A stretch of DNA of 64,000 nt from Kiritimatiellia bacterium (lineage in GTDB: Bacteria; Verrucomicrobiota; Kiritimatiellia; CAIVKH01). Shown one piece after another: positions 2,758 to 47,323 of this stretch (positions are counted from its first letter, which is position 1; each line of letters begins with the position of its first letter). The translations under genes and the position numbers were made by a program. The notes beneath the pieces were generated by a model, which was not told the origin of the DNA, did not search any database, and worked only from the letters and a program-made list of their open reading frames with translations. Location: NCBI GenBank assembly GCA_039807095.1, contig JBDHQM010000002.1, positions 97,261 to 161,260 of the forward strand, given 5' to 3'.

Positions 2758-2769
2758 TTTTCCTTCTTT

Positions 2770-5175: not shown

Positions 5176-6201
5176 CTAAACGGCAGAAAGAAATGCCTCC
5201 ATCTGTTCATCCGTCCCGATTGTGATCCGGAGATAATCGGAAATCCGCGGGGCGGCAAAATAGCGCACGAGAATCTTCTTTTCGCGCAAATGCGCGAACA
5301 GCTCTTTCGCGCTGATCCCGTGTGGTTTCGCAAAAAGAAAATTCGTTGCCGAGGGCAACACAGACCACCCGCGCGCCATCAACGCTGCTGCAACGCGATT
5401 GCGCGTCGCCACAATCTTTTCCGCATTCGCCCGCATCCATGCCTGATCGCGAATCGCCGCCAGACCGATCACCTGCGTCAACGCATCGAGATTGTAGGAA
5501 TCTTTGATTTTATACATCGCTTCAATCAGTGGCGCAGCACCAACTGCATAACCCAGTCTGATCCCGGCAAGCGAATAGGACTTCGAGAGCGTGCGCGACA
5601 CCAGCACATTCGGGTAGCGCAGTGCGAACTCCATTCCGTTTTCCGGGGCAAAATCAGCGTATGCCTCATCCAGCAGTACCACACCGCGATAACTCGCACA
5701 GAAGGCTTCCAGCTTCTCGCGCGGATACAGCATTCCAGTCGGCGCATTCGGCGTGGTCAAAAAGAAAAGCGGCGCGCAATCGGGCGCGGGAGTCGTCCAC
5801 TCAAAGCGGTCCGTCAGCGGAACGTGCACCGTCGGGACATCGGCAATCGCCGCCAGCACGGGATAGAGCGAATACGAAGGGTCGAAGCAGGCGATCCGCC
5901 CGCCCGGCGCGACAAAGGCGCGCGTGCAAAGCGCAAGCGTTTCATCAGAGCCATTTCCGGCAAATACATTCTCGATCTTACACCCGTGCAGCTCCGCAAT
6001 CGCCTCACGCAATTCCGTCGCGACCGGATCGGGATAAAGCCGCAGCCGCTCGGCCGAGAACGCCCTGAGCGCTTCTTCCACGCGCGGCGAAGGCGGGTAT
6101 GGATTCTCATTGGTGTTAAGCTTGATGAGCCCGGGCACGCGCGGCTGCTCGCCGGGTGTATAGGGCGTCATCGCAGCAACAGAGGGTCGAATTAATGGCA
6201 T
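5176..6201 (-). CDS. hisC: histidinol-phosphate aminotransferase
   Basis: Class II aminotransferase with the PLP lysine motif (SKSYSLAGIRLGY) and the N-terminal LNTNENPYPP motif. Start is taken at MPLIRP. Confidence 0.9.
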   Translation of the reverse strand: MPLIRPSVAAMTPYTPGEQPRVPGLIKLNTNENPYPPSPRVEEALRAFSAERLRLYPDPVATELREAIAELHGCKIENVFAGNGSDETLALCTRAFVAPGGRIACFDPSYSLYPVLAAIADVPTVHVPLTDRFEWTTPAPDCAPLFFLTTPNAPTGMLYPREKLEAFCASYRGVVLLDEAYADFAPENGMEFALRYPNVLVSRTLSKSYSLAGIRLGYAVGAAPLIEAMYKIKDSYNLDALTQVIGLAAIRDQAWMRANAEKIVATRNRVAAALMARGWSVLPSATNFLFAKPHGISAKELFAHLREKKILVRYFAAPRISDYLRITIGTDEQMEAFLSAV

Positions 6202-6284
6202 ATTCAAATCATCCTTCGCACGAGCTGGCACAGTGCGCAGCCACAAAACTGGTAGAGTGCGAGACGTTCATTGTCAAACTCTCC

Positions 6285-7406
6285 TCATGCACGGCTCTGA
6301 ACCACGCGTTCGAACACGCGCCACAACGCCGCCGCGCTTGCATCCCACGTGAACAGGCGAGCGCGCTCGCGCCCTGCCTTCACTAAGCGCGCGCGATCGT
6401 CAGCCGACATCACAACCGCCTTACTCAGCGCAGCGGCAAAAATTGCTTCATCCCGCCCATCTGCATAGCAGGCGGCATCGCCTGCCACCTCGGGAATAGA
6501 CGCTTCGCGCGTAGTAAATACCGGTGCTCCCGCCGTCATCGCTTCCAACACGGGCAGGCCGAATCCCTCGTAGAGCGACGGGAATACAAACCAATCCGCT
6601 CGCTGATACAGCGCGATCATTTCCTCCCGTGCAACATCCGCCAGGCGCACCACCCGCCCTGCGGGCGACTGCGCAAGCGCGGCTGCAACTTCCGGCTCAC
6701 CCAGCCGCGCTTTCCCCACCAGCACGAGGCGATGTGGAATCACCGATGCGATGCGATTGAAGGCGCGGATCAACATCGCGACATTTTTGTGCGGATAGGT
6801 ATGCGCCACGCAAAGCAAATAGGGGCCGTCTCCCGTCCGCAACGGCACACTCGATGGCACGCCAAACGCCGGGTCTGCTGCAAGCAGAGTTACTTCGATC
6901 TTGTCTGCGGGTGTGCCGAGGAAGCGAACGATCTCCGCCTTCGCAAATTCGGAAATTGTCACCACCGCCGCACTCACACGCGCGGCGAGCGGATAGAGGA
7001 TATCCATCGTCTGCGCCGCAAGCCACGTGACATCGTGTGGGAAGCGCTTGTACTGCATGTCGAGAGTGGACACGACCTGCGGACACGAACATCGCCATGG
7101 CGCCGTATAGCCCGGCGACCACAACACATCCACTCCGGCGCGCTTCACGAGTTTTGGCAGTGAAAACTGTTCAGCTGGAATCCGCGCAAACCGGTTTGTC
7201 GCCGCGACGCCTGTAGGCACCAGTTTTGCCGCCGGAAACGCGCGACTCAAAAATTCATGATTCTCGGCATTGGTAAAAAGGACAAGCTGCGGGGGCAGCT
7301 CGCGTCGGAGCAGTGCACGCAGCGTTTCGAGCAGATAGGTTTCAGAACCGCCGACCTCACCCGGCAGATAAAATAGCGTATTGACGCCCACTCGCATCGC
7401 GCTCAC
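6285..7406 (-). CDS. glycosyltransferase family 4 (GT-B)
   Basis: C-terminal EX7E-like region (EGFGLPVLEAMTAGAPV). Confidence 0.8.
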   Translation of the reverse strand: MSAMRVGVNTLFYLPGEVGGSETYLLETLRALLRRELPPQLVLFTNAENHEFLSRAFPAAKLVPTGVAATNRFARIPAEQFSLPKLVKRAGVDVLWSPGYTAPWRCSCPQVVSTLDMQYKRFPHDVTWLAAQTMDILYPLAARVSAAVVTISEFAKAEIVRFLGTPADKIEVTLLAADPAFGVPSSVPLRTGDGPYLLCVAHTYPHKNVAMLIRAFNRIASVIPHRLVLVGKARLGEPEVAAALAQSPAGRVVRLADVAREEMIALYQRADWFVFPSLYEGFGLPVLEAMTAGAPVFTTREASIPEVAGDAACYADGRDEAIFAAALSKAVVMSADDRARLVKAGRERARLFTWDASAAALWRVFERVVQSRA

Positions 7407-8005
7407 GGCTCCACGCGACGATGCTGCTTTTCCAGCTCCTCCACGCGCGCTTCAAGGTTGGCGCAACGCTGCGCCAGGCGTGCGCGGTCGTCGCTCAAGC
7501 GGGAAAGCGCGATAGAAAAGTGAAATGCGACGAGCAATAGAAACGTGAAGATCACCGCCACAACAAACGTCACGTACTGCATTCCGAAGAGCGCACAGAA
7601 AAAATCGAGCACATCCGTAAAGATTGCGCAAAGCAGCAAAATCAAGCCCGTGGACATCCACAATAGCGCATATCGCTCGCGCAGATGCGCGCGACGAACG
7701 GCCTCAAATGTCACCAGCAGGACAACAAAGCTCAACACGCCCATCAGCAATCGGATGCGTCCAAGAAATGTGATGCGGTTCAATTCCAGCAAAAGCCGCA
7801 AATCCCACGCCAGTGCGGCAAAGAACAGAGATAGCGCAATGAGAATTACGCTGCGGAATACGTGAATGCGATTCGCGCGCACCGCCAATACCATCGTCAC
7901 AAGCAGGAACACTGCGATGGCGACGAACAACACGCGCGCCCCCATCGGGCCCAGCGGGGCTACAATCGCGTCAACCCAACCCTGCATGGTTTTGACCGCG
8001 TTCAT
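7403..8005 (-). CDS. DUF2304 small membrane protein (partner of a polyprenol-phosphate glycosyltransferase)
   Basis: Four to five TM helices plus a C-terminal coiled coil. ATGA overlap with the upstream GT2 gene. Confidence 0.6.
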   Translation of the reverse strand: MNAVKTMQGWVDAIVAPLGPMGARVLFVAIAVFLLVTMVLAVRANRIHVFRSVILIALSLFFAALAWDLRLLLELNRITFLGRIRLLMGVLSFVVLLVTFEAVRRAHLRERYALLWMSTGLILLLCAIFTDVLDFFCALFGMQYVTFVVAVIFTFLLLVAFHFSIALSRLSDDRARLAQRCANLEARVEELEKQHRRVEP

Positions 8006-8733
8006 GTCCACTCCACCGTATAGCGGCGCGAAAGCCCCTTGTTCAATACGCGGACCCGGTCCACTACCAGCGCGAAGCCCACCTTCAGCGCGTAATAGAC
8101 TGTTCCCCAACCGTGAATACTCGACTGACCAGCCTGGCGTGCGCGGAACTGTACACCCGCCTCTGTGAACGTGTAGCCCAGTCGGCACAAAAGGGCGATT
8201 GCCTCAGGCTCCGGATAATCCACCGGATACTCGCGCGCAAAGTATTGCAGCAACGGTCGCTTCACTGCCCAGAAACCGGACGTGGGATCCGTCACACGTC
8301 TCCGGCAGATAATGGAAAGGAAAACCGCCAGCATCTTAATTCCGAAGAAACGGAACAGCGTCGTGTGTAAACCGGCGGACGAAAAACGGGAACCAATCAC
8401 GAGGTCCGCATCTGACTCACGCGCCGCCTTCAACAGCGTCGGGATTTCAGACGGCGGATGCTGCCCGTCTCCATCAATCCGGATTGCCAGTTGATAGCCA
8501 TTCGCCAGCGCATACTGGAAGCCCGCCTGCACCGCGCCGCCTACGCCCAGGTTGCACGGCAGGTCAAGAACTGTTGCGCCCGCCTCACGCGCCACCAGCG
8601 CTGTCCGGTCTGAGGCGCCATCACAGATCACAAGTGCAGGCACGCCCGGACACGCATCCGCGAGTTCCTTCACCAAGCCTCCAATCGAACCCTCCTCGTT
8701 GAAGGCCGGAATAATGACGACGACATCCTTCAT
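8002..8733 (-). CDS. GT2 polyprenol-phosphate sugar synthase (GtrB/ArnC/Ppm1-like)
   Basis: GT-A fold with DGxSxD and DxD motifs. About 240 aa, similar to dolichyl/undecaprenyl-phosphate hexose synthases. Confidence 0.75.
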   Translation of the reverse strand: MKDVVVIIPAFNEEGSIGGLVKELADACPGVPALVICDGASDRTALVAREAGATVLDLPCNLGVGGAVQAGFQYALANGYQLAIRIDGDGQHPPSEIPTLLKAARESDADLVIGSRFSSAGLHTTLFRFFGIKMLAVFLSIICRRRVTDPTSGFWAVKRPLLQYFAREYPVDYPEPEAIALLCRLGYTFTEAGVQFRARQAGQSSIHGWGTVYYALKVGFALVVDRVRVLNKGLSRRYTVEWT

Positions 8734-8790
8734 TTGGAATCCCGTCAGTATGAGCAGAAAGCCTCCCGCGTGTCCACGCCGCGCACGGCC

Positions 8791-10602
8791 CTAATCATCC
8801 GTCTCCAAATAAAACCCTGCCCCTAAATTTCCGGCCTTGCGCATCCGAAGCTCCTTCAACGGATACGGCGTACAGGGAAGCGGTGCGTCGCCACATTGAT
8901 CGCCCTGTACCGGCGCATACACAAGAAAAGGCGTGTTGGTGCCCAATACAAGTTCCTGCACAGGCAAGCTGCGCGAATGGCCAATCTCCCACCAAGGCCG
9001 ACTCGACGCGCTCTTCAACGACGGCTTCATCCACCACACCAACGACGCCACAGCGGCAATTGCAAGAAGCCGAATCCACGCGCGATCAGGGAGGCGCGAG
9101 AACAAGAGTGCACCTGCCGCGCCAAACCACATCCAGAAAAATCCAAGCCCAAATCGTAAATCCGGCGCAGTGAGCAACCAGAAGACCAGACTCGCCCCCG
9201 CCATCAGCAGAATCAAGATGGCCGCAACATCTTCGCCCCATAACGCCCCGCCGCGCCGCCGCCACGGCCATATCGTCAGCCATGCGGCGACGCAAACAGC
9301 TCCCGCTATCGCAATGAAGCGTGGAACGCCCCGCCAATTCTGCCGCGCCCAACGAGGCAGCCATTCCGACAACCGCTGGTTCGCCGCTTTTCCATAATGC
9401 GGACCGGGGCGACGCGCCCAGCCCTTTAGCACTCGATATTGCCCCTCCACGGACTGCATTTTGTATTCATGCCCTTTGGCAATGGGCTCTCGCGGAACCG
9501 ACCAATCCACCGGCAATGCCAAAATTGGACTTGGATATAGTGGCCATCCTGTTGCAATCGAATTTCGTGCAACAACACTCACAGCAAATAGACCGGGTAA
9601 AAGCAGAAGTGTAGCCGCGCGTCGTATCGCAGCAGGACGGCTCGCCCGCTCATCCGCACTCCACGCGATCAGTGCACTCAGCACGGCAACGAGCAGCACA
9701 ACAGCCGAAAGCGCTTTGACGGCATACGCCGCAGAAATCAGGAATAGAGGCGCGCGCAGCGCGAGCAGCCACGCACCTCTCTCTTTGGGCGGATATCGCA
9801 AGAGTTGCAAACCTGCGACGAGGAGCAAAATGTGCGCAACGTCGTCAGTGTATAGCGAAGGCTGGAGCAACCCGACCTGCGCGATCAAATACGGCAAAGT
9901 GAACAATGCGAAAAACCGAGCGACAGGCGGTACGGTTGTTTCGCGCACGATCACGTGAAGCCACTGCAGAAGCGCTGCACCCAGAGCGAAACCGGGAACA
10001 ACCCACGCGGATCGGCCATCCCACCATCCATGATCTACAAACGCTGCCAGCAACAAACCCGCGTAGGTATGCCCCAAGCGGCAGTGCAGATTTGCGATAC
10101 CCGGCACAACTGCATACTCCTTCGCCCAGCGCACCCAGGAAAAATGGTAGAGGTCGGTGTCATAAACGGAGGACCAACGCCAGGTGGCGGATTTCATCAC
10201 CAGCAAAACGATTGTCGCAGCTGCAAGCGTCCAGGAAACAAGACCGCGCATATTCACGCGCGGACGAGACGCAAAATCCGGCGCGACGATGCAGGTGGCG
10301 CGCGAACAGCGGTTGAAGAAACCGGCCGTAGAAATTAGCGCTACAGCTCCCGCGACAAATGATGTCAACGGAACCACAAAATTCAGTACGAGCAGAACGA
10401 GGAGCAAAAACGCGAGGCCTATCCAGAAGCGGGGCCATCGGTCGAACCTCTCCTGCGACCCGCTCATGAGGCGCCAAAGCGATTCGACCGCGAGACCGAA
10501 GCCCTGACACACCAGCGCGAGAAGCAACCAGGCTAAAGCAATACGAATCATGGGCGCTTTATCTACTCGGGATCCTGCAACAGCAATTCCGGCGAATCCC
10601 AC
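8791..10602 (-). CDS. large polytopic membrane protein, GT-C-like putative glycosyltransferase (start probably the internal Met at 10551)
   Basis: At least 12 predicted TM helices. Acidic D-x-D (YDTDLYHF) in the first loop. Confidence 0.45.
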   Translation of the reverse strand: MGFAGIAVAGSRVDKAPMIRIALAWLLLALVCQGFGLAVESLWRLMSGSQERFDRWPRFWIGLAFLLLVLLVLNFVVPLTSFVAGAVALISTAGFFNRCSRATCIVAPDFASRPRVNMRGLVSWTLAAATIVLLVMKSATWRWSSVYDTDLYHFSWVRWAKEYAVVPGIANLHCRLGHTYAGLLLAAFVDHGWWDGRSAWVVPGFALGAALLQWLHVIVRETTVPPVARFFALFTLPYLIAQVGLLQPSLYTDDVAHILLLVAGLQLLRYPPKERGAWLLALRAPLFLISAAYAVKALSAVVLLVAVLSALIAWSADERASRPAAIRRAATLLLLPGLFAVSVVARNSIATGWPLYPSPILALPVDWSVPREPIAKGHEYKMQSVEGQYRVLKGWARRPGPHYGKAANQRLSEWLPRWARQNWRGVPRFIAIAGAVCVAAWLTIWPWRRRGGALWGEDVAAILILLMAGASLVFWLLTAPDLRFGLGFFWMWFGAAGALLFSRLPDRAWIRLLAIAAVASLVWWMKPSLKSASSRPWWEIGHSRSLPVQELVLGTNTPFLVYAPVQGDQCGDAPLPCTPYPLKELRMRKAGNLGAGFYLETDD

Positions 10603-12278
10603 TCATAAATCGCCAGCGCATCGTTGTCGAACACACGACGGAATCGCGCGTCTGCATCCAGTTGCGCGGCAAAATAATCTGGATAGACACCAAGATTTGA
10701 AACTTCCGCATCCACATGCGCAACGCGGTCTTTTTTGATTACAATCGCGCCGACCCTTCGCCTCGCAAGAATGCCGATTCGCGTATCGTTATCGCCCAGC
10801 CAAAACTCACGCAAATGGCCGCCCAGATACCAATCGTGCGGTGCAGGAAACAAACGATAATTGCCTTCCGGATACATAAATATCCGACGCGGCTCCGGCA
10901 AATGCTCTCCCAGAAAGGCAATTCCCTCTTTCAGCTCATCGGACACACTTCGAAGCTGAACGGTCTTTGCAAGCACGCCGCCCGCCTGGGCCAAACACAG
11001 CAGCAGCAGCGCAGGAATCCAAATACGCGGGCGGACCAATCTGGCAGCCGATTCCGCGACAGGAATGAGAAGAAAGGGCACTGCGGGATAAAAGAACCGC
11101 GCATCCGGAGACGCCCTGAGCAAGAATGCAGCGGGAATAAGAAAACTCAATCCCACCCAGAACGGCCAGCACACCGCGGCAGCTTCCGATAGCTCGACGA
11201 GGCGGGTGCGACGGAATACTGACCCCGCTGCACCGGCGATCAATACAACCCACAGCGCGCCGCCACCATAGAGCAGCCAGTTCTTAGGCTCGCGTAAGTC
11301 GCCCGGATGATATGCCGACACTTGATTTTCATAGACCGATATTGATTGCGCTTTTACTGGCCGCGCGGCCCTTGGCTTTTCCGAACTACGCGATGGCGGT
11401 GACGTTTTTGCGCCAAATTTCTCAGCAATTGCGCGAACCTGGCGCAGCGGATAATACCCGCCATGCGGCGACAACACGCGATCTGCAATCTGCATGGAGA
11501 AGCTCACCAGAACGAGCGAGACCAAGAGCGGAATAAGTGTACAACGCACCCTTGCTCTGCGGGGTTTGTCACGTGTAGCGCTCCAGCGCCGCAGTGTCAG
11601 CATGACAAAGAACGCAGGAATGAACAGAGCGGCCGTCTCTTTCATACACAGAGCAAGCACAAGAAACAGCGTCGCCCATACCCAGCGCCGACGCTCCAGC
11701 AAATAGAACGCTGTCAGCAATTGCGCGGTCATCGGAACATCGAGATAGAAGACAACTGAAAACAGTAGCGACATGGGCAAAGAGGCAAGCGTCAGCAGAT
11801 ACACAATCGTTGAGCGCGCGGGCGTTTTCGAACACGACCGCAGCAGCAGAGAGCCGGCGAATAGCAACTGCGCAAAAAACAGCGCCTGATAAATCTGCAC
11901 CGAGGCAAAATAGGGGAACAAACGATACAGCCATGCCCCCGCGTAATGCCAAAGGTTTGCGTGCGCATAGTAGTGAAACTCCGTCTCTCCCCACCCCGTG
12001 GGAATAAACACTTCAAACGTGAGTGACGGCAATACATCCGCCTGATGCGTCAGCATGAAATAGTGCCGAACTTCATCCCCCAGCATCGCATGCGGCATCC
12101 AAAGCCCGGCGATCAAGACGGCAAACGAAAACAGAATGACGAGGCCTAGCCGCACGCGAGAAAGCGCGCGCGGTGCATGCGTACAACTCGTCGCGGAATT
12201 GGCATCTATTGATGAAGCTTCTCTCATCCAGCAGTACCTGCGGACTACAATGCGCAACACCCTATTCCATCTCAACAA
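10563..12278 (-). CDS. GT-C glycosyltransferase, PMT/ArnT-like (GT39/GT83-like); start probably 12227
   Basis: First-loop LGDEVRHYF resembles the PMT FDEVHFG motif. Multi-TM N-terminal half with a soluble C-terminal domain. Confidence 0.55.
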   Translation of the reverse strand: MLRWNRVLRIVVRRYCWMREASSIDANSATSCTHAPRALSRVRLGLVILFSFAVLIAGLWMPHAMLGDEVRHYFMLTHQADVLPSLTFEVFIPTGWGETEFHYYAHANLWHYAGAWLYRLFPYFASVQIYQALFFAQLLFAGSLLLRSCSKTPARSTIVYLLTLASLPMSLLFSVVFYLDVPMTAQLLTAFYLLERRRWVWATLFLVLALCMKETAALFIPAFFVMLTLRRWSATRDKPRRARVRCTLIPLLVSLVLVSFSMQIADRVLSPHGGYYPLRQVRAIAEKFGAKTSPPSRSSEKPRAARPVKAQSISVYENQVSAYHPGDLREPKNWLLYGGGALWVVLIAGAAGSVFRRTRLVELSEAAAVCWPFWVGLSFLIPAAFLLRASPDARFFYPAVPFLLIPVAESAARLVRPRIWIPALLLLCLAQAGGVLAKTVQLRSVSDELKEGIAFLGEHLPEPRRIFMYPEGNYRLFPAPHDWYLGGHLREFWLGDNDTRIGILARRRVGAIVIKKDRVAHVDAEVSNLGVYPDYFAAQLDADARFRRVFDNDALAIYEWDSPELLLQDPE

Positions 12279-14556: not shown

Positions 14557-14592
14557 CCCTGCGAGACGGACAACTGCAAAGCCCGGGTCACC

Positions 14593-21750: not shown

Positions 21751-21775
21751 GGCGGGCGCGCGCAATGACGCGATT

Positions 21776-24749: not shown

Positions 24750-24758
24750 GCTGCATTC

Positions 24759-29481: not shown

Positions 29482-29492
29482 TTCGTAAATTT

Positions 29493-32217: not shown

Positions 32218-33109
32218 CCGGCACCCCTACGATTGGCTCCTCGGCGATCACTCCACGAACTGAGCGCTGTTCGACTGCACGCCAGTAGTGTGCGCGTAGC
32301 TTCGTTTTCATCCCGGTTTCAGTGCTTCGCGTCAATTGCCCGCCGTGCTGGCGATATAACATTTGCGTTTCCGGCAGGGAGAACACAGGGATATCCGCCT
32401 TTGCTGCGCGCCGCAAGAAGTCCCGATCGCCCGCACACGGCCACGGAGCGAAGCCGCCCAGGCGGGTGAGGACTGTCTTGGAAAGCCCAATGGCGCCCTT
32501 GACCTGGCGCGGATGTTTCTTCTCGGCGGGCTGTAGCCGGTCATCGCAAATCGCCGCCATCGGACGCACAAGAAATGCGGGCGTTATGGCGGCGCATTGA
32601 CGACAAAAAGAATAGAAGGACGCGAGAGCGCCGGGCACCAGCGCATCGTCAGCATCCACGAACAGGACAAACTCACCGCGGGATGCCAGCAGTAGAGAGT
32701 TGCGAATAACAAACAGTCCACAATGGGACCGGAAGTTCAGCACGCGAACGCGTCTACGCATCTCCGATGAAAGTGCGGCGATATACCGGTGTGCTGCGGA
32801 AAGCGTAGCTTCACAACAGTCTATCGCGATCAACACTTCCAGCTCCACCCCAACCGGCGCAGGTTGGTGCAGGATGGAATCCAAGCAATCTGCCAAATAG
32901 CGATCTACAGCCCGGGCAGCGATCAGCACAGAAAACACGCCCGGATCGGATTCGCGGACCAAGGAATTCACGGGACGACAAGATTGATTGATATTGCGCT
33001 CCCACGCTGCAGCCTGCGCAGCAGCCGAACGCGCAGCTACCATCCCGCTTGCGTATCGCCACAATGCGCCCGCAATCATGACGAACCTCCAGGGATATGG
33101 GCCGCCCAA
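32210..33109 (-). CDS. glycosyltransferase family 2-like (start probably 33079)
   Basis: VLIAARAVDRYL...FVDADD motifs. Confidence 0.6.
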   Translation of the reverse strand: MGGPYPWRFVMIAGALWRYASGMVAARSAAAQAAAWERNINQSCRPVNSLVRESDPGVFSVLIAARAVDRYLADCLDSILHQPAPVGVELEVLIAIDCCEATLSAAHRYIAALSSEMRRRVRVLNFRSHCGLFVIRNSLLLASRGEFVLFVDADDALVPGALASFYSFCRQCAAITPAFLVRPMAAICDDRLQPAEKKHPRQVKGAIGLSKTVLTRLGGFAPWPCAGDRDFLRRAAKADIPVFSLPETQMLYRQHGGQLTRSTETGMKTKLRAHYWRAVEQRSVRGVIAEEPIVGVPDV

Positions 33110-33885
33110 AAATCGGGCTCATATTTTCCCCACGCATGGCACCCGAACGGCAAACGCCCGTTCATGCGAGCCACATAGCTCGATGGCTCCAGTTCCAGCG
33201 CAAAATACATCGCTTCCTCTTCGCGAGGAATCCGGAAACCGGGAGGCGCAAACATTGTCCAGAACATATCTTCATTTCCCGGCCACTGCGCAGCGAACTT
33301 CCCGTGCGTCATCAGGGTCTGGCGAAAACCCGGTATACGGCGCAGCGAGAAACCGCCATTGCCCACGCGAAAATCACGGCGATACCAGAGTCGCGCCAAT
33401 CCCGGCCACTGCACCAACCGTGGCCGCGCCTCGCGCACATGGCGATGGCGCAATAGGTCCCGACTGCCCCACGGCGCGCCGATATAGTCATACCCACGCG
33501 CGCACCAGTCCTCCAATTCATCGCGGAAAACAAAGGCATCCAACTGATAAATCAGCAAGTATTCCCACCCGCGAAATCGGGCATAAAAATCATCGGAAAG
33601 CAGCAGGCGGCTGTATGCGTCAACGCTCACAAATGCCGATGCTGGGAAATACTCGGTTTTCACTCCCTCAAACTCCGGAGGCAGGATCAAACCTTCCGGG
33701 CAAATGATGCGGATGTCGTGGCGGCCCAAAATACGGCGGCACTGTGCAAGCGACAGGCGCTCTTCCGCGCTGAGCGTCTCCTTGAAGCAGGGCACTAATA
33801 CGACACAACTCATTTTGTCATCCACACGTTCCCGCACACCCGGCGCATCACAGCCATACGTCACGCCGAGTTGACGATCTCCCAT
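33076..33885 (-). CDS. DUF5672-like glycan-cluster protein (putative GT-A-like transferase)
   Basis: YQLDAFVFRD DxD-type block. Typical companion of GT2 genes. Confidence 0.45.
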   Translation of the reverse strand: MGDRQLGVTYGCDAPGVRERVDDKMSCVVLVPCFKETLSAEERLSLAQCRRILGRHDIRIICPEGLILPPEFEGVKTEYFPASAFVSVDAYSRLLLSDDFYARFRGWEYLLIYQLDAFVFRDELEDWCARGYDYIGAPWGSRDLLRHRHVREARPRLVQWPGLARLWYRRDFRVGNGGFSLRRIPGFRQTLMTHGKFAAQWPGNEDMFWTMFAPPGFRIPREEEAMYFALELEPSSYVARMNGRLPFGCHAWGKYEPDFWAAHIPGGSS

Positions 33886-35174
33886 TGATGCGACACCAGA
33901 ACCCCCGAATTATCGCTGATCTTTTGCAGTTTGCCCGTCCCGTAAAAATCTCCGTCAACGACGAATAACTCCAGGCCGTCAATCAATTCATCCGCAACGG
34001 TTTTGCCAACCTTGCAGAACAGATGCACCACATAGCGTCCCGGAAGCAGCGGCAACTTTGGAATTGTGAGGCGAATCGTGCCGCGCCGCCCCAAGCGAAG
34101 GGTCTCCGGATGCGAGACGCGCGAAAAACACAGGAATTTTTCCTGACGGGTCTCACCCGATGCCACTCGAAAATAAATGAAGCACGGTTGATCGTTCATC
34201 ACGGTGCGCTCGTAATCCAACTCAACCGTAATGGTTTCGCCAGACTGCGCCGCGTTGATGACGACGTTTCGCTCGTTACGAATTCGATAACCAGTAAAAC
34301 GCACACTGCCGTCCCCGCTCCGGTCGGTTCGTTCGTTGATGGGCAGATGCGACGCCTTCGGTAAATGCGTTTTCAGATACGCTTCTGTAATTTCCTGCAC
34401 ATTGCCGATCATCTGGCACTCACCGCCGCGCAAGAGAACAGCCCGGGAACAGAGCGCCTGAATCGCGGCCATGTTGTGACTGACAAATAAAATCGTACGC
34501 CCCTCTTTTGAGACGTCTTGCATACGGCCAAGGCATTTCGCCTGAAACTCCGCATCACCTACCGCGAGCACCTCGTCCACGATCAATATCTCTGGCTCCA
34601 AATGCGCCGCCACCGCAAAGGCAAGTCGAACGTACATTCCGCTCGAATAACGCTTCACCGGTGTATCTATGAACGCGCTCAACTCGGCGAAGGCAACAAT
34701 CTCGTCCAGTTTGCGGGCGACTTCTCGCTCCTTCATGCCGAGAATCGTGCCGTTCATAAATACATTTTCTCGCCCGGTCAGCTCCGGATGGAAACCCGTA
34801 CCCACCTCAAGCAACGAACCAATTCGACCGCGAATTCGCACCTCGCCAGAGGTGGGTTCTGTGATGCGACTCAGAATCTTCAGGAGCGTGGATTTGCCCG
34901 CGCCATTGCGGCCGATGATGCCGACAACTTCTCCCGGCTGCACATCGAATGAAACATCGCGCAAGGCCCAGAAGTCCTGGTTTCCAGCCTGTTCTGCCTC
35001 GACCCGGCGACGCTCAGTCGCGCCGTATCCGATTTTTTCAAACGCCTTCCGCGGATCGCGGCCGCGCAGTTTGTGCCACCAATACTTGGTTTCATCAATT
35101 AGCGTGTGCCGCCCGATCGTCCCCAATCGGTATCGCTTCGAAAGATTGTGAATGGAAATTGCCGCCTCGCTCAT
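33861..35174 (-). CDS. wzt: ABC transporter ATP-binding protein Wzt with C-terminal glycan-binding domain
   Basis: Walker A GRNGAGKST, signature YSSGM, Walker B ILIVDE. A C-terminal extension of about 170 aa as in Wzt/TagH-type exporters. Confidence 0.85.
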   Translation of the reverse strand: MSEAAISIHNLSKRYRLGTIGRHTLIDETKYWWHKLRGRDPRKAFEKIGYGATERRRVEAEQAGNQDFWALRDVSFDVQPGEVVGIIGRNGAGKSTLLKILSRITEPTSGEVRIRGRIGSLLEVGTGFHPELTGRENVFMNGTILGMKEREVARKLDEIVAFAELSAFIDTPVKRYSSGMYVRLAFAVAAHLEPEILIVDEVLAVGDAEFQAKCLGRMQDVSKEGRTILFVSHNMAAIQALCSRAVLLRGGECQMIGNVQEITEAYLKTHLPKASHLPINERTDRSGDGSVRFTGYRIRNERNVVINAAQSGETITVELDYERTVMNDQPCFIYFRVASGETRQEKFLCFSRVSHPETLRLGRRGTIRLTIPKLPLLPGRYVVHLFCKVGKTVADELIDGLELFVVDGDFYGTGKLQKISDNSGVLVSHQWEIVNSA

Positions 35175-36007
35175 ATCGTATCCACAAACGTGCGTTGAAC
35201 TTTATTGAAGAGGAAAAGGCCGGACACCAAAACAAGCGCAGTGACAAACCAGCTCAAGCCCAGCCCCCAAAGCTCCGGGCTCCCCCGCCCCGTGAGTGCA
35301 TAGCGGCTGAACTCCACAACCGCGGTCATCGGATTAAGCCACAGCACAAACTTCAGGATCGGTTTCACAACCAGTTTGGCGGGATACACAATTGGCGTGC
35401 CATACATCCACAACTGCACCAGAAACGGCAGAGCGAAACGCAGGTCGCGATACTTGATCGTCGCCGCCGAGACCCACAATCCGAATCCGAGTCCGAGCAG
35501 TCCCGTCTGTAGAATCAACAGAGGCAGGAAGAAAACCCACGCATTCGGCTCCATCGCGCTCCCGCGGAAATAATACCAAAAGTAGAAGCCGAGAAACAAA
35601 AGCGAGTTCAGTGCAAGATGGGCAAACTGCACAAACACGCCGGACAACGGCATGATCAGGCGCGGGAAATACACCTTTGTTAGGATATTTGTGTTGGACA
35701 CCAGCGATGTCGCGCCTTGATTCAACACGCCCTGAAAATAATTCCAAAACAGCGTTCCGCTCATGTAGAAAATGAACTGCGGAATTCCATCTGTCGAAAT
35801 CTTTGCCACCGTTCCGAAGATCACCGTAAAGACGATCGTCGTAAGCAGCGGCTGAATCACAAACCAAAGCGGCCCGATGATTGTCTGGCGATACACCGCG
35901 GTCAGCTCGCGCTTGACCCACAGGGTCAAAAGATCACGGTATTCCCACAGCTCGCGCACCGGAATCCGCCACCAGGGACTGTTTGCTCGAATAACGGTTG
36001 TCTGCAT
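35171..36007 (-). CDS. wzm: ABC-2 type polysaccharide exporter permease Wzm
   Basis: Six-TM ABC-2 permease, ATGA-coupled to wzt. Confidence 0.85.
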   Translation of the reverse strand: MQTTVIRANSPWWRIPVRELWEYRDLLTLWVKRELTAVYRQTIIGPLWFVIQPLLTTIVFTVIFGTVAKISTDGIPQFIFYMSGTLFWNYFQGVLNQGATSLVSNTNILTKVYFPRLIMPLSGVFVQFAHLALNSLLFLGFYFWYYFRGSAMEPNAWVFFLPLLILQTGLLGLGFGLWVSAATIKYRDLRFALPFLVQLWMYGTPIVYPAKLVVKPILKFVLWLNPMTAVVEFSRYALTGRGSPELWGLGLSWFVTALVLVSGLFLFNKVQRTFVDTI

Positions 36008-36012
36008 CGCGC

Positions 36013-36525
36013 CTATCCCAGCTTAGAAAACAAATTCACAAGAGGATTCTTCATCAAACGGCTTGCGCGCTTGTTCAACTGACTCAAACGAGCGACACGC
36101 CGACGTAGAAACGCTTCATCCGGACTCGCCGCTTTGCCCCCCAATGCCGCGTCTGCTTCTTCCAGCTCCGTATCCAGCGCCGCCATACGCGCGCTGGCAA
36201 ATTTCAAAATTCCGTGGCGCAACGCGGTTCCAATATCGTCCGCGCTTCGATAGTAGCGTTTACGGTCGCCCGGTTTCCGCACACGATGGGCTAATCCCAG
36301 CCGGTCCAGTTGCGCAGCAGCAAGACTCACCGCCGCCTTACTCAAGTTCAGCTCGCGCTCCAACGCATCCAGCGATGCCTCCCCCTCTGTGAGGTAAAGG
36401 CACGCCAAGACTTCGCCCGCAGTCCGATTGAAACCGAAATCCTGCGCAAGTCGCCCGCCGGCCGCCACCAGACGCCGCTTCACATTCCTGGCACTCGCTC
36501 CGTTATCCACGCCCATGTTTATCAC
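36013..36525 (-). CDS. GbsR/MarR-type winged-helix transcriptional regulator
   Basis: HTH region LACLYLTEGEASLDALERELNLSKAAVSLAAAQLDRLGL. About 170 aa. Confidence 0.65.
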   Translation of the reverse strand: MINMGVDNGASARNVKRRLVAAGGRLAQDFGFNRTAGEVLACLYLTEGEASLDALERELNLSKAAVSLAAAQLDRLGLAHRVRKPGDRKRYYRSADDIGTALRHGILKFASARMAALDTELEEADAALGGKAASPDEAFLRRRVARLSQLNKRASRLMKNPLVNLFSKLG

Positions 36526-36527
36526 GC

Positions 36528-36551
36528 AACTTTTACAATTTCGTAAAAGTT
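36528..36551. promoter_or_regulatory. perfect 9-6-9 palindrome AACTTTTAC-AATTTC-GTAAAAGTT, candidate GbsR operator
   Basis: Sits 3..28 bp upstream of the regulator start, in the 100-bp divergent intergenic region. Confidence 0.5.
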
Positions 36552-36623
36552 AGGCAGTTTGCCGGGGTGGCGTCAATGGATTTCTTTCCATCGCGGCGGC
36601 CGCGTTGCGAAGATTGACGCACC

Positions 36624-37763
36624 ATGCCGCGCGTGCAACTCTTTCGCGCCATGGATGCCACAGCAGCGGAACGCGACAACCAGACTACCGGCGCCGTGCG
36701 CATTCTCTACTCTTCTTTCCAAACCGGTCCTGCCCTGCCGGGATACATCCGCTACGCACTTACCAGTTTCGCGCGCAGCGGCATGCCGGTCGTCTTGCTG
36801 ACAAATCGCCGCGAGCTGGACGAGGAAAGCAAACAGTTCCTCGCGGCAAACGGAATCGAGCTGTTTCTCACCGAGAATGATGGATTCGATTTCGGTATGT
36901 GGCGCCGCTTCATCAACGCCACGCCTGAAGGAGTTCGCAATGCCTGGTCGCGCATCCTCCTCGCCAACGACTCCGTGGTTTATTTTCGCGACACCATCCC
37001 CGACTTCATCGCTCAGGCAGAAATGAATGACGCCGACATGGTCTCGCTCACCGCAAACCCAAATCTTGGCTTTCACCTGCAATCATTCTTTCTCTATCTC
37101 AAGCCGCGTGCGATCCACGAGCTTTTCCGCCATCTCTCAACAGGCGCCTCCTCAACCGGGTATTGGGACACGATCAAATCCATGGAAGTGGGATTGAGTC
37201 GGCGAATGGTTGAGAGCGGATTGAAAATCGCGCCCCTCTTTCGCACAAGCAAACACATTGATTTTTCGTACGAAGAACTGATCCGCCAGGGTGCGGGTTT
37301 TGTGAAGCGACGCTTCGTGGATGGACGATACAAACACTCATCGCCCACCTATTTTTGGAAAAACGGAGAGGCGCGGGCGATTGAACTCGATTATGTGCGC
37401 CTCATTCGCGAAGCGGGCAATCTAGATCCCGCCTTTTCTCTCGATTGGATCAGCGACCTGAATACACACCCCTCTTTTCGGTCCGCGCTCTATAGGCTCC
37501 GAAAATTCGCGTTTTACGCCGTATATCCGGGTTTTCGCGCAATTCAACGCTATCGGCGCTATGCAACGCCGACAGTTTTGATGGCCGATCTTGCCTCAAT
37601 CTTCGTGTGCGTTGCCGCGGCAGCGACAGGCGGATATTTCTTCGGATGGCGGTCTGCGCTTGCGGGATTTTTGGCGATGTTTTTTCTGATTCTTGCGGTG
37701 CGTCGCCTACGCTCTCGTGTCAGAAAGCGAAACGGATCGTCTATTTCCGCAGGACAACGGTAA
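36624..37763 (+). CDS. putative polysaccharide-biosynthesis transferase-like protein with C-terminal TM anchor
   Basis: The only plus-strand gene in the locus. It is divergent from the regulator. No firm family assignment. Confidence 0.3.
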   Translation: MPRVQLFRAMDATAAERDNQTTGAVRILYSSFQTGPALPGYIRYALTSFARSGMPVVLLTNRRELDEESKQFLAANGIELFLTENDGFDFGMWRRFINATPEGVRNAWSRILLANDSVVYFRDTIPDFIAQAEMNDADMVSLTANPNLGFHLQSFFLYLKPRAIHELFRHLSTGASSTGYWDTIKSMEVGLSRRMVESGLKIAPLFRTSKHIDFSYEELIRQGAGFVKRRFVDGRYKHSSPTYFWKNGEARAIELDYVRLIREAGNLDPAFSLDWISDLNTHPSFRSALYRLRKFAFYAVYPGFRAIQRYRRYATPTVLMADLASIFVCVAAAATGGYFFGWRSALAGFLAMFFLILAVRRLRSRVRKRNGSSISAGQR

Positions 37764-38403
37764 AGCCGTTGCCAATTTTGTCGTCCCGGCCCTGCACGGC
37801 TTCAATCTTTACCGGCGCGGGAAAAAGGCCACTGCGATTCATGTGGAGAATAAGCTCCAACAGATCTTCTGTAACCCAGACTGAGTAGTGGCCATCCGGC
37901 GGATCAAACGGTGCAATTTTTCCGGCATGGCGATCGAGCAGTTCCGACAACTGAGTTCGTTGTTTCTCTTTGTCGAAGGTTCGCTCTTTGTGCGGGACAA
38001 TGATGAAAATGATCCCGCCGGGCCGCACGAGGCGATACCACTCTTGAAGCGCTTTGATTGGATCGAAAAAATGCTCCAGCACGTGCGAGTTGATCACGAA
38101 ATCAACTGACGCATCGGGCAGCGGAACTGCGTCGCCCGGTGCGACAATATCCACGGGCAACGCGCGCCCACATGCGCTGATTTCCATTTCTTTGTAGACC
38201 GTTTGCTCGCGCGTATAGTCCACATTGCGCGTGTTTAGTCCGAACGGATTGTGTGCTGCACCGCCAATCTCCAGCCCCTCGCCCTTGCAGAATTCCTTGG
38301 CAAGTGCAGAAGGCCGGTTGGGACGCCGATCCAATCGAAGAAGATGCTCCAATCGTTTTCGAAGCGGGCGCGGCACTCCAATATCTTTCAAGAAAGATCG
38401 CAT
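37741..38403 (-). CDS. class I SAM-dependent methyltransferase
   Basis: LEIGGAAHNPF motif I and VDFVINSHVLEHF motif II. Confidence 0.75.
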   Translation of the reverse strand: MRSFLKDIGVPRPLRKRLEHLLRLDRRPNRPSALAKEFCKGEGLEIGGAAHNPFGLNTRNVDYTREQTVYKEMEISACGRALPVDIVAPGDAVPLPDASVDFVINSHVLEHFFDPIKALQEWYRLVRPGGIIFIIVPHKERTFDKEKQRTQLSELLDRHAGKIAPFDPPDGHYSVWVTEDLLELILHMNRSGLFPAPVKIEAVQGRDDKIGNGFTVVLRK

Positions 38404-38418
38404 TCCCGACTCGCCTGC

Positions 38419-39783
38419 CTATTTATCAAAACGAATCCGGGCGGAGCGGCCGTGGGCGGGGAGGCGTTCGACGCGGGAGAATTGGTCAATGTGCGGGAGG
38501 ACGTCCTGCAGGTCGGCGCGTGTGAACGAGATGAAGCTGGTGCGGCGGCGGAAGGAGTCCACAGTCAGGCCGGAAAACAAGGCGGCAGTACCGCCGGTCG
38601 GCAAAACGTGGCTGGGGCCAGCCACAAAGTCGCCCGCGCATTCCGGGGTCCAGGGGCCAATGAATACCGCGCCCGCGCTCTTTACCTTCTTCAGCCACAC
38701 GCGCGGTTCGCGGCACATCACTTCCAAATGTTCCGGCGCGAATGCGTTGATGAGCTCCATTCCGATATCCAGATTATCCACGATGACAATCAGGGTGCCT
38801 TTGTTCAGCACGCGATAGACGGCGTCACCGGCGTTGAGGTCGGATGCCTGTTTGGGCAGCTCTTCCGCAACGGCGTAGGCGAGTTGCGGGGAAACAGTGA
38901 CCAGCAGCGCGCGCTCGTGGCCGGTGCCGTGTTCCGCCTGTGCCAGCATGTCGGCAGCGACGTGCTTCGCAGATGCCGAATCGTCAGCGAGGATCGCAAC
39001 TTCGCTGGGGCCCGCGATCATATCGAGGTCCACAGCTCCATACACGAGCCGTTTGGCAGCGGTGACGTACGGCCCGCCGGGGCCAACAATCTTCTGCACT
39101 TTCCGAATGGTTTTGGTGCCATACGCCATTGCGCCAATGGCTTGGATTCCGCCGATGCGATAAATCTCCGTCGCGCCCGCGAGATCGAGCGCATACAGGA
39201 CGTGCGGGTTAACTTTGCCGCCCTTCTCAGCAGGGGTGCAGGCGACAACTTCCAAAACACCTGCCGCCTTCGCGAGACCGACGGTCATCAAAGCGGTGGA
39301 GGCGAGCGGCGCGGCGCCGCCGGGGATGTAGCAGCCGACGCGATCGTAAGGCTGAAACTGTTCGCCGAGCATGCCGCCTTTGGGGCTGAGGATATTCCAA
39401 TCTTTGCGCAATCCGGCTTTGGCAAATTTCTGAATTCGCGCGAGCGCTTCGCCTGCGGCCTTCTTGAAGTCGGAATCCACGCGATCAATCGCATCCATTC
39501 GCTCGGCCTTCGTCACTTCCATCTTGGCGGCGGTGACCTTGTGTCCATCAAACTGCGCGACGAACTCACACACGGCGGCATCGCCGCGCGCCCGAATTTC
39601 TGCGAGTACCCCGCGCGCGGATTCTTCGGCCTCCGGAAGGATGGCATCGCGCACAATGAACTCTTCCACCGCTTTGACGGTGGATGTGGGGGCCCACTTC
39701 ACCACGCGGATGTCAGCGGTTCGATTATCGTCTTGCTTGCTCATAAACTTCTTTTCCTTCCTGCCCGCGTACGCTGTTTTCAA
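38419..39783 (-). CDS. hisD: histidinol dehydrogenase
   Basis: HisD core motifs (CYIPGGAAPLASTALM, AQAEHG). Alternative start at 39744 has a GGAAGG RBS. Confidence 0.9.
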   Translation of the reverse strand: MKTAYAGRKEKKFMSKQDDNRTADIRVVKWAPTSTVKAVEEFIVRDAILPEAEESARGVLAEIRARGDAAVCEFVAQFDGHKVTAAKMEVTKAERMDAIDRVDSDFKKAAGEALARIQKFAKAGLRKDWNILSPKGGMLGEQFQPYDRVGCYIPGGAAPLASTALMTVGLAKAAGVLEVVACTPAEKGGKVNPHVLYALDLAGATEIYRIGGIQAIGAMAYGTKTIRKVQKIVGPGGPYVTAAKRLVYGAVDLDMIAGPSEVAILADDSASAKHVAADMLAQAEHGTGHERALLVTVSPQLAYAVAEELPKQASDLNAGDAVYRVLNKGTLIVIVDNLDIGMELINAFAPEHLEVMCREPRVWLKKVKSAGAVFIGPWTPECAGDFVAGPSHVLPTGGTAALFSGLTVDSFRRRTSFISFTRADLQDVLPHIDQFSRVERLPAHGRSARIRFDK

Positions 39784-40013
39784 CGCAATGGCGCCTCATT
39801 CAAATGATCGCAGTGCGGGCAACGCGCCATGGGCACCTGGCGGGGTTCGACATAGAGACGCCCGCAGTTCACACACCGATACAGGCGTCCGGGATCGTAT
39901 GATTTGCGCGTTTTTTCCTCGCGCGCGGCATAATATAGCCACGCGGCTAAAATTGCGACAAGGGCGAAAACCGGCGGCACCCAGAAGACCAGCGCTGATG
40001 AGGCTCCGGTCAT
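39780..40013 (-). CDS. small membrane protein with CxxC...CxxC zinc ribbon
   Basis: 77 aa with one N-terminal TM and CVNC..CPHC. ATGA-coupled on both sides. Confidence 0.45.
   Translation of the reverse strand: MTGASSALVFWVPPVFALVAILAAWLYYAAREEKTRKSYDPGRLYRCVNCGRLYVEPRQVPMARCPHCDHLNEAPLR

Positions 40014-44473: not shown

Positions 44474-47323
<2,850 letters not shown>

Follow-up and report, generated by a model that had tools for sequence, protein, structure and literature searches.

The DNA analysed in this work, hereafter the window, is a stretch of 64,000 nucleotides from a Kiritimatiellia bacterium in which two genes of histidine biosynthesis, hisD and hisC, are separated by a surface-glycan locus. 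All large open reading frames (ORFs) between 5.1 and 39.8 kb were searched with the profiles of Pfam and NCBIfam, and the features are listed in Table 1. The interval between hisD and hisC (6202..38418) is 32,217 bp in length and contains 28 glycan-related genes. Both his genes are on the minus strand, score above the NCBIfam equivalog cut-offs and are intact with native termini, which bears out the initial annotation of two co-oriented genes kept apart by glycan genes. The hisD gene starts about 13 codons within the longest ORF (38419..39783), and the alignment showed that its C-terminus, IRFDK followed by the stop codon, is native and kept in relatives; the start of hisC is the ATG at 6201, fixed by the N-terminus MxLIRPSV common to the relatives (MPLIRPSV in the window). 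The insert begins 15 bp past the hisD stop codon, as first described; the distance of 38 bp given for the other end reaches only an upstream in-frame TTG, and the actual gap before hisC is 83 nt. The reference layout chosen at that time, the classic hisGDCB, does not apply to this lineage, where linkage is confined to the hisD-hisC pair: neither in the window nor in its close relatives was hisG found upstream of hisD or hisB downstream of hisC.

The insert encodes an ABC (ATP-binding cassette) exporter, Wzm and Wzt, the latter with a carbohydrate-binding domain, without Wzx, Wzy or Wzz; therefore we assigned the locus to the ABC-transporter-dependent class. This is the class proposed in the initial annotation, and the examined stretch agrees with it in having neither a priming enzyme nor genes for common nucleotide sugars: the Pfam and NCBIfam scans gave no match to Wzx, Wzy, Wzz, WecA/WbaP or rml/galE/manC. 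For Wzx, Wzy and Wzz the negative result covers the 28 insert genes, of which three encode polytopic membrane proteins that remain unassigned; for a WecA/WbaP-type initiating transferase and for WaaL it covers the scanned ORFs of the 64-kb window.

Relatives were collected by a hisD scan of genome representatives and by tblastn of all window proteins; closer ones came only from a large protein collection, and a hisD scan of metagenomes brought none closer than those from the genomes. Ten metagenome-assembled genomes (MAGs) of Kiritimatiellae/Verrucomicrobiota are the closest among the representatives, with a hisD 60-69% identical to that of the window; several keep the upstream order uvrA-TPR-exbB-exbD, and hisC lies downstream of hisD in all but one short contig. 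The two genes overlap by 4 bp in L003, L007 and L010, and the set with either a 4-bp overlap or a gap below 20 nt consists of these three together with L004, L009, L082, L083 and L085. In the nearest relatives with an empty site, seven contigs whose hisD is 82-87% identical (L166-L172), the gap between hisD and hisC is 10-135 nt, and the adjacency, often with a 4-bp overlap, holds in most of the deeper Kiritimatiellae/Verrucomicrobiota relatives sampled and extends to deep outgroups across Verrucomicrobiota and Firmicutes-type MAGs. An occupied site was found in a sister species (L165, hisD 91% identical), with the order hisD, methyltransferase, RgpF-like gene on the opposite strand, MarR, Wzm and Wzt. 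This contig overlaps four others (L161-L164) at 96-98.5% nucleotide identity, which derive from the Kiritimatiellae assemblies GCA_023953735.1 and GCA_019454825.1 and from JGI and ENA contigs, and which hold the remaining genes in the order of the window. The window and L165 can be aligned across the hisD junction, and no sharp break of identity is seen inside hisD. In neighbour-joining trees built from hisD and from the TPR protein, the two genomes with an occupied site form a sister pair that nests among genomes with an empty site.

Since the occupied sisters nest among empty-site genomes, a single gain is the parsimonious reading, and because the locus was present before the sisters split, at about 82% nucleotide identity of the flanking core genes, the insertion is old. 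We concluded, with a probability of about 0.75, that a self-contained, ABC-transporter-dependent surface-glycan locus of 32.2 kb was inserted once into the hisD-hisC pair, in the ancestor of this bacterium and one sister species. The two genes were formerly adjacent, as had been supposed at the outset, and the refuting condition set at that time, relatives in which hisD and hisC were never neighbours, does not hold; the view of an old or ameliorated insertion was right as to age, the composition not being assimilated. It might be argued that the locus is ancestral to the whole clade and was precisely deleted several times, restoring the hisD-hisC adjacency, as presence and absence alone give no direction, glycan loci are frequently lost and the empty-site spacers are short and not conserved. 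This would require many independent precise deletions as against one gain, with one occupied sister pair amid no fewer than five distinct lineages whose site is empty and with deep outgroups keeping the adjacency, and we consider it very unlikely. That a chimeric metagenome contig joined a glycan locus to his genes is extremely improbable: the junction of hisD with the methyltransferase gene is found again in L165, an independent assembly from another species, this contig overlaps three other independent assemblies (GCA_023953735.1; GCA_019454825.1/JGI; ENA) at 96-98.5%, and both his genes are intact with native termini, against which stand the apparent origin of the sequence from a metagenome-type contig of 177,953 bp and an insert composition unlike that of the flanks.

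We also considered whether hisC had been imported with the island, given its low G+C content at third codon positions (GC3, 0.655), and rejected this. The identity of hisC to its relatives correlates with that of hisD (Spearman rho 0.95, 31 loci), therefore hisC is a resident, vertically inherited gene; its GC3 is below that of hisD in several empty-site relatives, too.

The insert is divided near its hisD end. The first methyltransferase gene is probably co-transcribed with hisD, and the next gene, encoding the RgpF-like protein, has the plus-strand orientation; at its 3' end it overlaps the convergent methyltransferase gene by 23 nt, and it diverges from the MarR gene across a 98-nt gap. The RgpF-like gene has an exact database match and 280 homologues at an E-value of at most 1e-10; among the 120 that were listed, about three quarters carry PF05045. 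The sister species has a copy of 63% identity, likewise on the opposite strand. Upstream of MarR a perfect palindrome, AACTTTTA-N8-TAAAAGTT (36528..36551), overlaps a promoter-like element, and an alignment of five loci showed that TTGAC(G/A), a spacer of 17-18 nt, TAACTT and the palindrome are invariant. The window has a single copy of the palindrome (the expectation from shuffled sequences is zero even at two mismatches), and one copy precedes MarR in each of seven related loci (L161-L165, L173 and L174). In L174 a second copy (7245..7268) follows an opposite-strand pyruvyl-transferase gene and looks like an internal restart promoter/operator. Judged from these sequence features, the element upstream of MarR would be a sigma-70-like operon promoter with a MarR operator, and MarR probably binds the palindrome, resulting in autoregulation of the operon.

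From MarR (36516) to the last gene of the insert, which encodes a family 4 glycosyltransferase (GT4; 6285), 27 genes run in one direction with gaps of at most 57 nt between them, and 14 of the 27 junctions in question (26 internal ones and that of the last GT4 gene with hisC) can be 4-bp ATGA or GTGA overlaps. The initial annotation had all of about 30 glycan genes co-directional, which is correct for 27 of the 28 and wrong for the RgpF-like gene, and most junctions as 4-bp ATGA overlaps, which is possible for about half. Its single translationally coupled unit from hisD to hisC is excluded, because the opposite-strand RgpF-like gene and the divergent, conserved MarR promoter and palindrome intervene. 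One long coupled operon of hisD, all glycan genes and hisC, driven by the hisD promoter, could invoke the common strand of hisD, hisC and nearly all insert genes, the many potential overlaps and the lack of a convincing terminator; it is nevertheless highly improbable, as a conserved opposite-strand gene converges on the methyltransferase gene, the 98-nt divergent region lies ahead of MarR, and the same locus head is present in L173 without hisD. At least three transcription units would be expected, namely hisD with the methyltransferase gene, the RgpF-like gene alone, and MarR through the last GT4 gene. Expression of hisC would probably result from read-through from the MarR-led glycan operon, or else from a weak promoter within the 83-nt spacer.

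Most of the contents first listed for the insert were recovered by the Pfam and NCBIfam profiles: five GT4 (one weak) and four family 2 glycosyltransferases (GT2), NeuB, NeuA, the carbamoyltransferase, the MBOAT protein, two methyltransferases and Wzm/Wzt. Of the three GT-C proteins one has a GT-C signal, which is sub-threshold, and the other two are without support; the kinase is a sub-threshold P-loop match (AAA_33, 1.4e-5), and the supposed SGNH partner of the MBOAT protein, 324 amino acids (aa) long, matches no family. Six genes of the insert were absent from that list (MarR, RgpF-like, DUF5672, DUF6625, TIGR04396 and DUF2304).

Table 1. Features of the hisD-hisC region in the window, and cargo at the hisD|hisC junction of other loci (positions are those of the sequence named in the first column; TM, transmembrane; SAM, S-adenosylmethionine)
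Sequence	Feature	Position	Strand	Evidence and remarks
Window	hisD, histidinol dehydrogenase	38419..39744	-	PF00815 (Histidinol_dh) 1.8e-141; TIGR00069 454.7 bits, cut-off 243.8; upstream anchor of the insert
Window	Spacer from hisD stop to first insert gene	38404..38418	-	15 nt; junction alignable with sister species L165
Window	SAM-dependent methyltransferase, first insert gene	37741..38403	-	Methyltransf_11 4e-13; 78% identical in sister species, 71% in L173
Window	RgpF-family glycosyltransferase-like protein, 379 aa	36624..37763	+	Weak Pfam RgpF match; two C-terminal predicted TM helices
Window	Divergent control region	36517..36623	-	TTGACG 36576..36571, 18-nt spacer, TAACTT 36552..36547, palindrome 36528..36551
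Window	MarR-family regulator, head of main operon	36013..36516	-	MarR_2 5.4e-7, MarR 3.7e-6; 69-77% identical in related loci
Window	Wzm, ABC-2 permease	35171..36007	-	PF01061 9.4e-17; best NCBIfam Wzm/RfbD and KpsM, both below cut-off
Window	Wzt, ABC ATPase with C-terminal carbohydrate-binding domain	33861..35174	-	ABC_tran (PF00005) 2.3e-24; Wzt_C (PF14524) 37.4 bits, cut-off 30.4; ATGA overlap with wzm
Window	DUF5672 protein, candidate glycosyltransferase	33076..33864	-	PF18922 5.2e-48; fused to Glyco_transf_9 domain in L173
Window	GT2, first of three consecutive	32210..33079	-	PF00535 3.9e-9
Window	GT2, second	31174..32217	-	PF00535 1.3e-30
Window	GT2, third	30386..31177	-	PF00535 1.4e-22
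Window	DUF6625 protein	29493..30389	-	PF20330 1.6e-56; fused to preceding GT2 in L161, L163 and L174
Window	NodU/CmcH-type O-carbamoyltransferase	27721..29481	-	Carbam_trans_N 1.5e-58, Carbam_trans_C 1.1e-70; best NCBIfam NodU, below cut-off
Window	CMP-nonulosonic-acid synthetase-like cytidylyltransferase (NeuA/PseF-like)	27008..27724	-	CTP_transf_3 2.4e-21; best NCBIfam PseF 116.8 bits, cut-off 205.7
Window	CBS-NeuB-SAF-xylose-isomerase-like TIM barrel fusion, about 750 aa	24759..27011	-	NeuB 1.4e-79, AP_endonuc_2 2.2e-17, CBS, SAF
Window	TIGR04396 'surface carbohydrate biosynthesis protein', candidate nonulosonic-acid transferase	23385..24749	-	345.9 bits, cut-off 125; BFO_1060 family 83.8 bits, below cut-off
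Window	P-loop kinase-like protein	22621..23388	-	AAA_33 1.4e-5, below cut-off
Window	SAM methyltransferase	21776..22624	-	Methyltransf_11 1e-15; 4-bp overlap with kinase-like gene
Window	GT4, first of three consecutive	20527..21750	-	Start uncertain; Glycos_transf_1/Glyco_trans_1_4, 1e-22 to 1e-36 for the three
Window	GT4, second	19289..20530	-	As above
Window	GT4, third	18120..19292	-	As above
Window	MBOAT O-acyltransferase	16685..18130	-	MBOAT (PF03062) 9.8e-27, 94.5 bits, cut-off 27; best NCBIfam DltB, below cut-off
Window	MBOAT partner, 324 aa, one N-terminal TM segment	15699..16673	-	No Pfam, NCBIfam or PDB match
Window	Divergent GT4-like glycosyltransferase	14593..15702	-	Glyco_trans_1_4 7e-5, Glyco_trans_1_2 1.2e-4, both below cut-off; 76% identical in sister species
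Window	Polytopic membrane protein, 764 aa	12262..14556	-	About 12 TM segments and C-terminal soluble domain; unannotated family
Window	Polytopic membrane protein, weak GT-C signatures	10563..12260	-	ALG10 4.2e-5, GT87 3e-4, ALG3 6e-4; all at residues 100-236, all below cut-off
Window	LIC_10190-family polytopic membrane protein	8791..10551	-	NF047510 174.4 bits, cut-off 100; about 11 predicted TM segments
Window	GT2, polyprenyl-phosphate-sugar-synthase-like	8002..8733	-	PF00535 3e-18; best NCBIfam PpgS, AglJ, dolichyl-P-hexose transferase, ArnC, all below cut-off
Window	DUF2304 membrane protein	7403..8005	-	2.7e-17, 63.4 bits, cut-off 25.5; 4-bp ATGA overlap with GT2
Window	GT4, last insert gene	6285..7406	-	Glyco_trans_1_4 1e-23
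Window	Spacer from last GT4 to hisC	6202..6284	-	83 nt; AAGGA ribosome-binding site; no terminator-like hairpin
Window	hisC, histidinol-phosphate aminotransferase	5176..6201	-	TIGR01141 316.2 bits, cut-off 276.55; downstream anchor of the insert
Window	DUF3592 membrane protein	3912..5141	-	PF12158; neighbour of hisC, outside the insert
L005	AbiLi and AbiLii	1482..3496
L011	HicA/HicB	11881..12457
L015	PIN-domain protein and small upstream ORF	11348..12019
L022	SMR pump and unknown genes	11305..12950
L092	Ig-domain protein, 1,233 aa	12170..15871
L102	GH106 rhamnosidase	11516..14317
L158	Cargo without annotation			About 3.6 kb

The NeuB fusion scored 321 bits with NeuB_NnaB and 251 bits with PseI, both below cut-off, and its PDB matches are PseI, SpsE and SiaC; none of the NeuC, PseB/C/H/G and LegB/C/H/G sets was found in the locus. 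On this sequence evidence the NeuB- and NeuA-like proteins are members of nonulosonic-acid biosynthesis at the family level only. The 120 listed homologues of the fusion (55-100% identical) are all of about 750 aa with NeuB and TIM-barrel domains, and this fixed architecture is widespread, being present in Kiritimatiellae, Lentisphaerae, cyanobacteria, Chloroflexi, KSB3 and Peregrinibacteria.

In the proposed pathway, the GT4, GT2, DUF5672, DUF6625 and RgpF-like enzymes would build a polyprenol-linked heteropolysaccharide in the cytoplasm on a primer made by an enzyme encoded elsewhere. A nonulosonic acid would be made by the NeuB fusion, activated by the NeuA-like protein and transferred by the TIGR04396 protein, the genes of which are contiguous and would be one module, and the glycan would be decorated with carbamoyl, methyl and possibly phosphate groups. 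The Wzt C-terminal domain may recognise a terminal residue or modification before Wzm/Wzt export the chain, which the MBOAT protein and its partner may then O-acylate outside the membrane. Side-chain sugars would come from a polyprenyl-phosphate-sugar donor made by the GT2/DUF2304 pair and be transferred by one or more of the three large polytopic membrane proteins; final attachment, most likely to lipid A-core, would be by a ligase encoded elsewhere or by one of these three proteins.

Some of these steps have counterparts in known systems. As in the prototype O-antigen loci of E. coli O9a and Klebsiella, Wzm and Wzt with a carbohydrate-binding domain accompany many cytoplasmic glycosyltransferases, Wzx/Wzy/Wzz are missing and the primer is made elsewhere; unlike in them, the locus here has a MarR head, nonulosonic-acid, carbamoyl and MBOAT modules and a Kiritimatiellae host. 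WbdD and the carbohydrate-binding module of Wzt provide the paradigm of ABC-transporter-dependent O-polysaccharide (PMC3482155). The kinase-like and methyltransferase genes, a pair conserved in the sister species, encode a candidate glycan-modifying or chain-capping pair that recalls the capping logic of the O9a WbdD (PMC3482155), although the kinase-like protein, a weak P-loop match, and the methyltransferase are separate proteins; recognition of a terminal cap by Wzt would follow WbdD-type logic by analogy only. Taken together, the sequences of the carbamoyltransferase, of the kinase-like/methyltransferase pair and of the MBOAT pair suggest that the glycan is decorated with carbamoyl, with phospho- or methyl, and with acyl groups. 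With the acylation pairs DltB/DltD, PatA/PatB and AlgI/AlgJ/AlgX the locus shares an MBOAT protein, whose partner here has no detectable SGNH/DltD match.

Proteins with DUF2304 form the GacJ/Rv3632 family, which stimulates polyprenyl-phosphate sugar synthases (bioRxiv 10.1101/180810), and three-component glycosylation systems occur also in ABC-transporter-dependent O antigens (PMC11127046). The coupling of a GT2 to a DUF2304 protein near large polytopic proteins resembles GtrA/B/C, GacI/J/K/L of Streptococcus pyogenes and PpgS/Rv3632 of M. tuberculosis; in contrast to these, no flippase of the GtrA/Wzx/MATE/SMR type was found among the locus genes, and there are three GT-C candidates instead of one. 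By analogy, the GT2/DUF2304 pair and the adjacent polytopic proteins are compatible with extracytoplasmic side-chain glycosylation, the GT-C status being unproven. The order of a NeuB-family synthase and a CMP-sugar synthetase-like enzyme, then a TIGR04396/BFO_1060-type candidate transferase, is reminiscent of the sialic, pseudaminic, legionaminic and KDN pathways of nonulosonic acids, from which the locus differs in the CBS-NeuB-SAF-TIM-barrel fusion, which is below the Neu5Ac and Pse equivalog cut-offs, and in lacking the upstream enzymes. BFO_1060 has been aligned with the Pse/Leg transferases of Tannerella (PMC5420450).

That the product is a capsule-like polymer or a glycan linked to protein or an S-layer, with a polytopic protein acting as ligase or oligosaccharyltransferase, instead of the O antigen of lipopolysaccharide (LPS), seems somewhat unlikely. 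Wzm/Wzt with Wzt_C are typical of O-polysaccharide export (PMC3482155), and no capsule genes of the KpsE/KpsD/KpsC/KpsS type were found; on the other side, no WaaL or Wzy_C match was obtained in the window, relatives of TIGR04396/BFO_1060 act in protein O-glycosylation in Tannerella (PMC5420450), and the locus holds three unassigned polytopic proteins.

These three proteins were not detectable paralogues of one another by phmmer. The family of the 764-aa protein has 150 representatives among 1.84 billion proteins, and the family alignment has the invariant residues D62, R193, H236, Y286, W428, R431, R432, E568 and W635, of which Asp62 lies between the predicted second and third TM segments. 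The protein has no Pfam, NCBIfam or PDB match, and a family profile of 72 sequences revealed no relationship when compared with the PDB, with Pfam member by member and, by hhalign, with the other two membrane proteins and a PMT-like protein. Neither 8791..10551 nor 12262..14556 gave a signal in the GT-C, PDB or hhalign comparisons, and PDB sequence searches with the three polytopic proteins, the MBOAT partner, the kinase-like protein and the TIGR04396 protein gave no useful matches. Single-sequence AlphaFold2 models of the 764-aa protein and the MBOAT partner had mean confidence scores (pLDDT) of 41.8 and 47.7, too poor for fold comparison.

Several observations weigh against the reading of a single old insertion of a self-contained exporting locus. 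The hisC-side junction is seen in the window only, since the sister loci end before hisC, and no integrase, tRNA or flanking repeat accounts for the insertion: the genes include no integrase, the single tRNA lies at 56089, and a search for border repeats or att sites gave only short chance matches and an unrelated 88-bp repeat around an insertion sequence (IS). In these respects the locus is unlike an integrase-mediated island or integrative and conjugative element. No priming transferase, ligase or lipid-linked-donor flippase was found in the 64 kb. The GT-C status is sub-threshold for 10563..12260 and unsupported for the other two polytopic proteins, and the kinase-like protein, a weak P-loop match, shows no relation to the kinase fold of WbdD. 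The promoter is recognised by its similarity to the consensus and by its conservation, not from a mapped start site, and generic promoter and terminator scans at both junctions gave counts no higher than in shuffled sequence. Finally, GC3 of the locus is well below that of the core in the window, and the sister locus, at 0.708, is near its own core; the window copy may have been partly replaced after the original insertion.

The GC content had been judged by eye as close to that of the flanks. We found that GC3 is 0.625 +/- 0.035 in the 28 insert genes and 0.733 +/- 0.038 in 16 core genes (Mann-Whitney p = 2.5e-7), about 11 points lower, and that overall GC is 56.7% in the insert versus approximately 60% outside. 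Identity between window and sister species is 56-91% for the locus proteins and 85-91% for most proteins of the flanking core, where a TonB-like protein (64%) is the one outlier. Gene content differs as well: the MBOAT pair is present in the window only, being absent in L161-L163, GT2 and DUF6625 are fused in the sister, and a GT2 is deleted in one sister strain. These differences could be explained if the window copy had been wholly or partly replaced later from a lower-GC relative by recombination in hisD and hisC or in conserved locus genes, for which O-antigen switching in enterobacteria is a precedent. We regard this as possible but doubtful, as the genes are collinear and can be aligned over the hisD junction, hisD itself showing no sharp break, faster divergence of glycosyltransferases is expected even under vertical descent, and no donor was identified. 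The deleted GT2 was seen on comparing two strains of the sister that are 97-98.7% identical across the locus: L161 3954..4713 corresponds to L162 4623..4718, a deletion of about 0.76 kb. This difference is an ongoing variation of gene content inside the glycan locus.

Related loci were also found in other contexts. The L173 locus has the same head (methyltransferase 71%, RgpF-like protein 57% and MarR 75% identical), followed by Wzm, Wzt and DUF5672; the methyltransferase gene there flanks the RgpF/MarR head and does not adjoin hisD, the neighbours being TonB_C, a BACON/malectin protein and type II secretion pseudopilins. In L174, MarR, Wzm and Wzt lead to GT2, DUF6625, NeuA, NeuB (81%) and TIGR04396 and further to the kinase-like and GT4 genes, directly after a peptidase/BACON/malectin gene. 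Because these related loci lie elsewhere, the locus is a member of a mosaic cassette family with a variable genomic address. Conversely, the hisD-hisC interval is 0.8 kb or longer in 7 of the 58 surveyed loci with hisC co-oriented downstream of hisD, with the cargo given in Table 1. The varied cargo at this junction in other Verrucomicrobiota is like that of core-gene-flanked cargo and defence hot spots, from which the site differs in its low occupancy (about 7/58), its heterogeneous cargo and the lack of an integrase or att-like repeat. The enterobacterial galF-gnd O-antigen hot spot, beside the his operon, is similar in being a low-GC glycan cluster between core genes, with content varying among close relatives and with flanks that could act as homology arms for exchange; here, however, the cluster lies inside an otherwise translationally coupled his pair, and most close relatives have an empty site instead of an alternative serotype.

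A wider reading, which we consider unlikely, would join three proposals: that hisD|hisC is a recombination-permissive cargo site across Kiritimatiellota and Verrucomicrobiota, where glycan loci, defence systems and toxin-antitoxin pairs are gained and swapped with the his genes as homology arms; that hisC, formerly coupled to hisD, is now the last gene of a 30-kb MarR-gated glycan operon; and that the 764-aa family, with Asp62, is a new extracytoplasmic glycosyltransferase or ligase. If this were true, histidine biosynthesis would be rewired, and amino-acid biosynthesis and surface-glycan production would be co-regulated.

Outside the insert, hisD is preceded by a 77-aa ORF and then by a TonB-like/ExbD/ExbB/TPR cluster. 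This small ORF (39792..40022, about 77 aa, no family match), between the TonB-like gene and hisD, is called in most close relatives (76-78 aa). On the other side, the DUF3592 gene downstream of hisC is also found in the empty-site relatives L167, L168 and L170, and Rce1-like or MatE genes take this place in others. Beyond hisC and DUF3592 lie two IS elements. One is an IS4-family element of 1,661 bp (1009..2669) with 13-bp terminal inverted repeats, cctgagttcaaca and tgttgaactcagg; its DDE_Tnp_1 transposase is encoded at 1016..2593. A perfect direct repeat of 88 bp lies on either side of the element (921-1008 and 2670-2757). Usual target duplications are far shorter, and the element is reminiscent of those of the IS1634 type, which make long duplications. 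Beside it, about 1.4 kb beyond hisC, is an IS110-family transposase gene (DEDD_Tnp_IS110 and Transposase_20; 2770..3810), at whose position synteny is broken, the relatives having other genes there. At the opposite end of the window, a plus-strand cluster (47500..53370) diverges from uvrA (44474..47323, minus strand) and encodes a CBM48/alpha-amylase, an FHA-domain protein, a GT2 and a 259-aa protein without annotation; in the relative L166, too, the amylase gene adjoins uvrA. The plus-strand GC skew is negative in all but one 2-kb interval of the window (down to -0.33 at 54-56 kb), also between 47.5 and 56 kb, a stretch whose genes lie mostly on the plus strand.

That variable glycan islands occur between housekeeping genes is well known, and the locus, a fairly ordinary variable surface-sugar island of an already known biochemical class, overturns no current understanding. 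Literature searches on Kiritimatiellota nonulosonic acid and Kiritimatiellae lipopolysaccharide found no study of the surface glycans of these bacteria, and a search for O-antigen clusters interrupting hisD/hisC gave nothing directly relevant. New here are the position of the locus within a coupled his pair, its signature of MarR and palindrome, and several families without annotation. The locus provides a phylogenetically polarised case of a whole surface-glycan operon lying between two normally coupled genes, both intact, with matched empty and occupied sites in close relatives, and it gives a first sketch of surface-glycan genetics in Kiritimatiellae. The conserved MarR gene behind an invariant palindrome, which marks this locus family, offers a regulatory handle, and the 764-aa membrane protein, DUF5672, DUF6625 and the CBS-NeuB-TIM-barrel fusion are unannotated families that become tied to glycan assembly.

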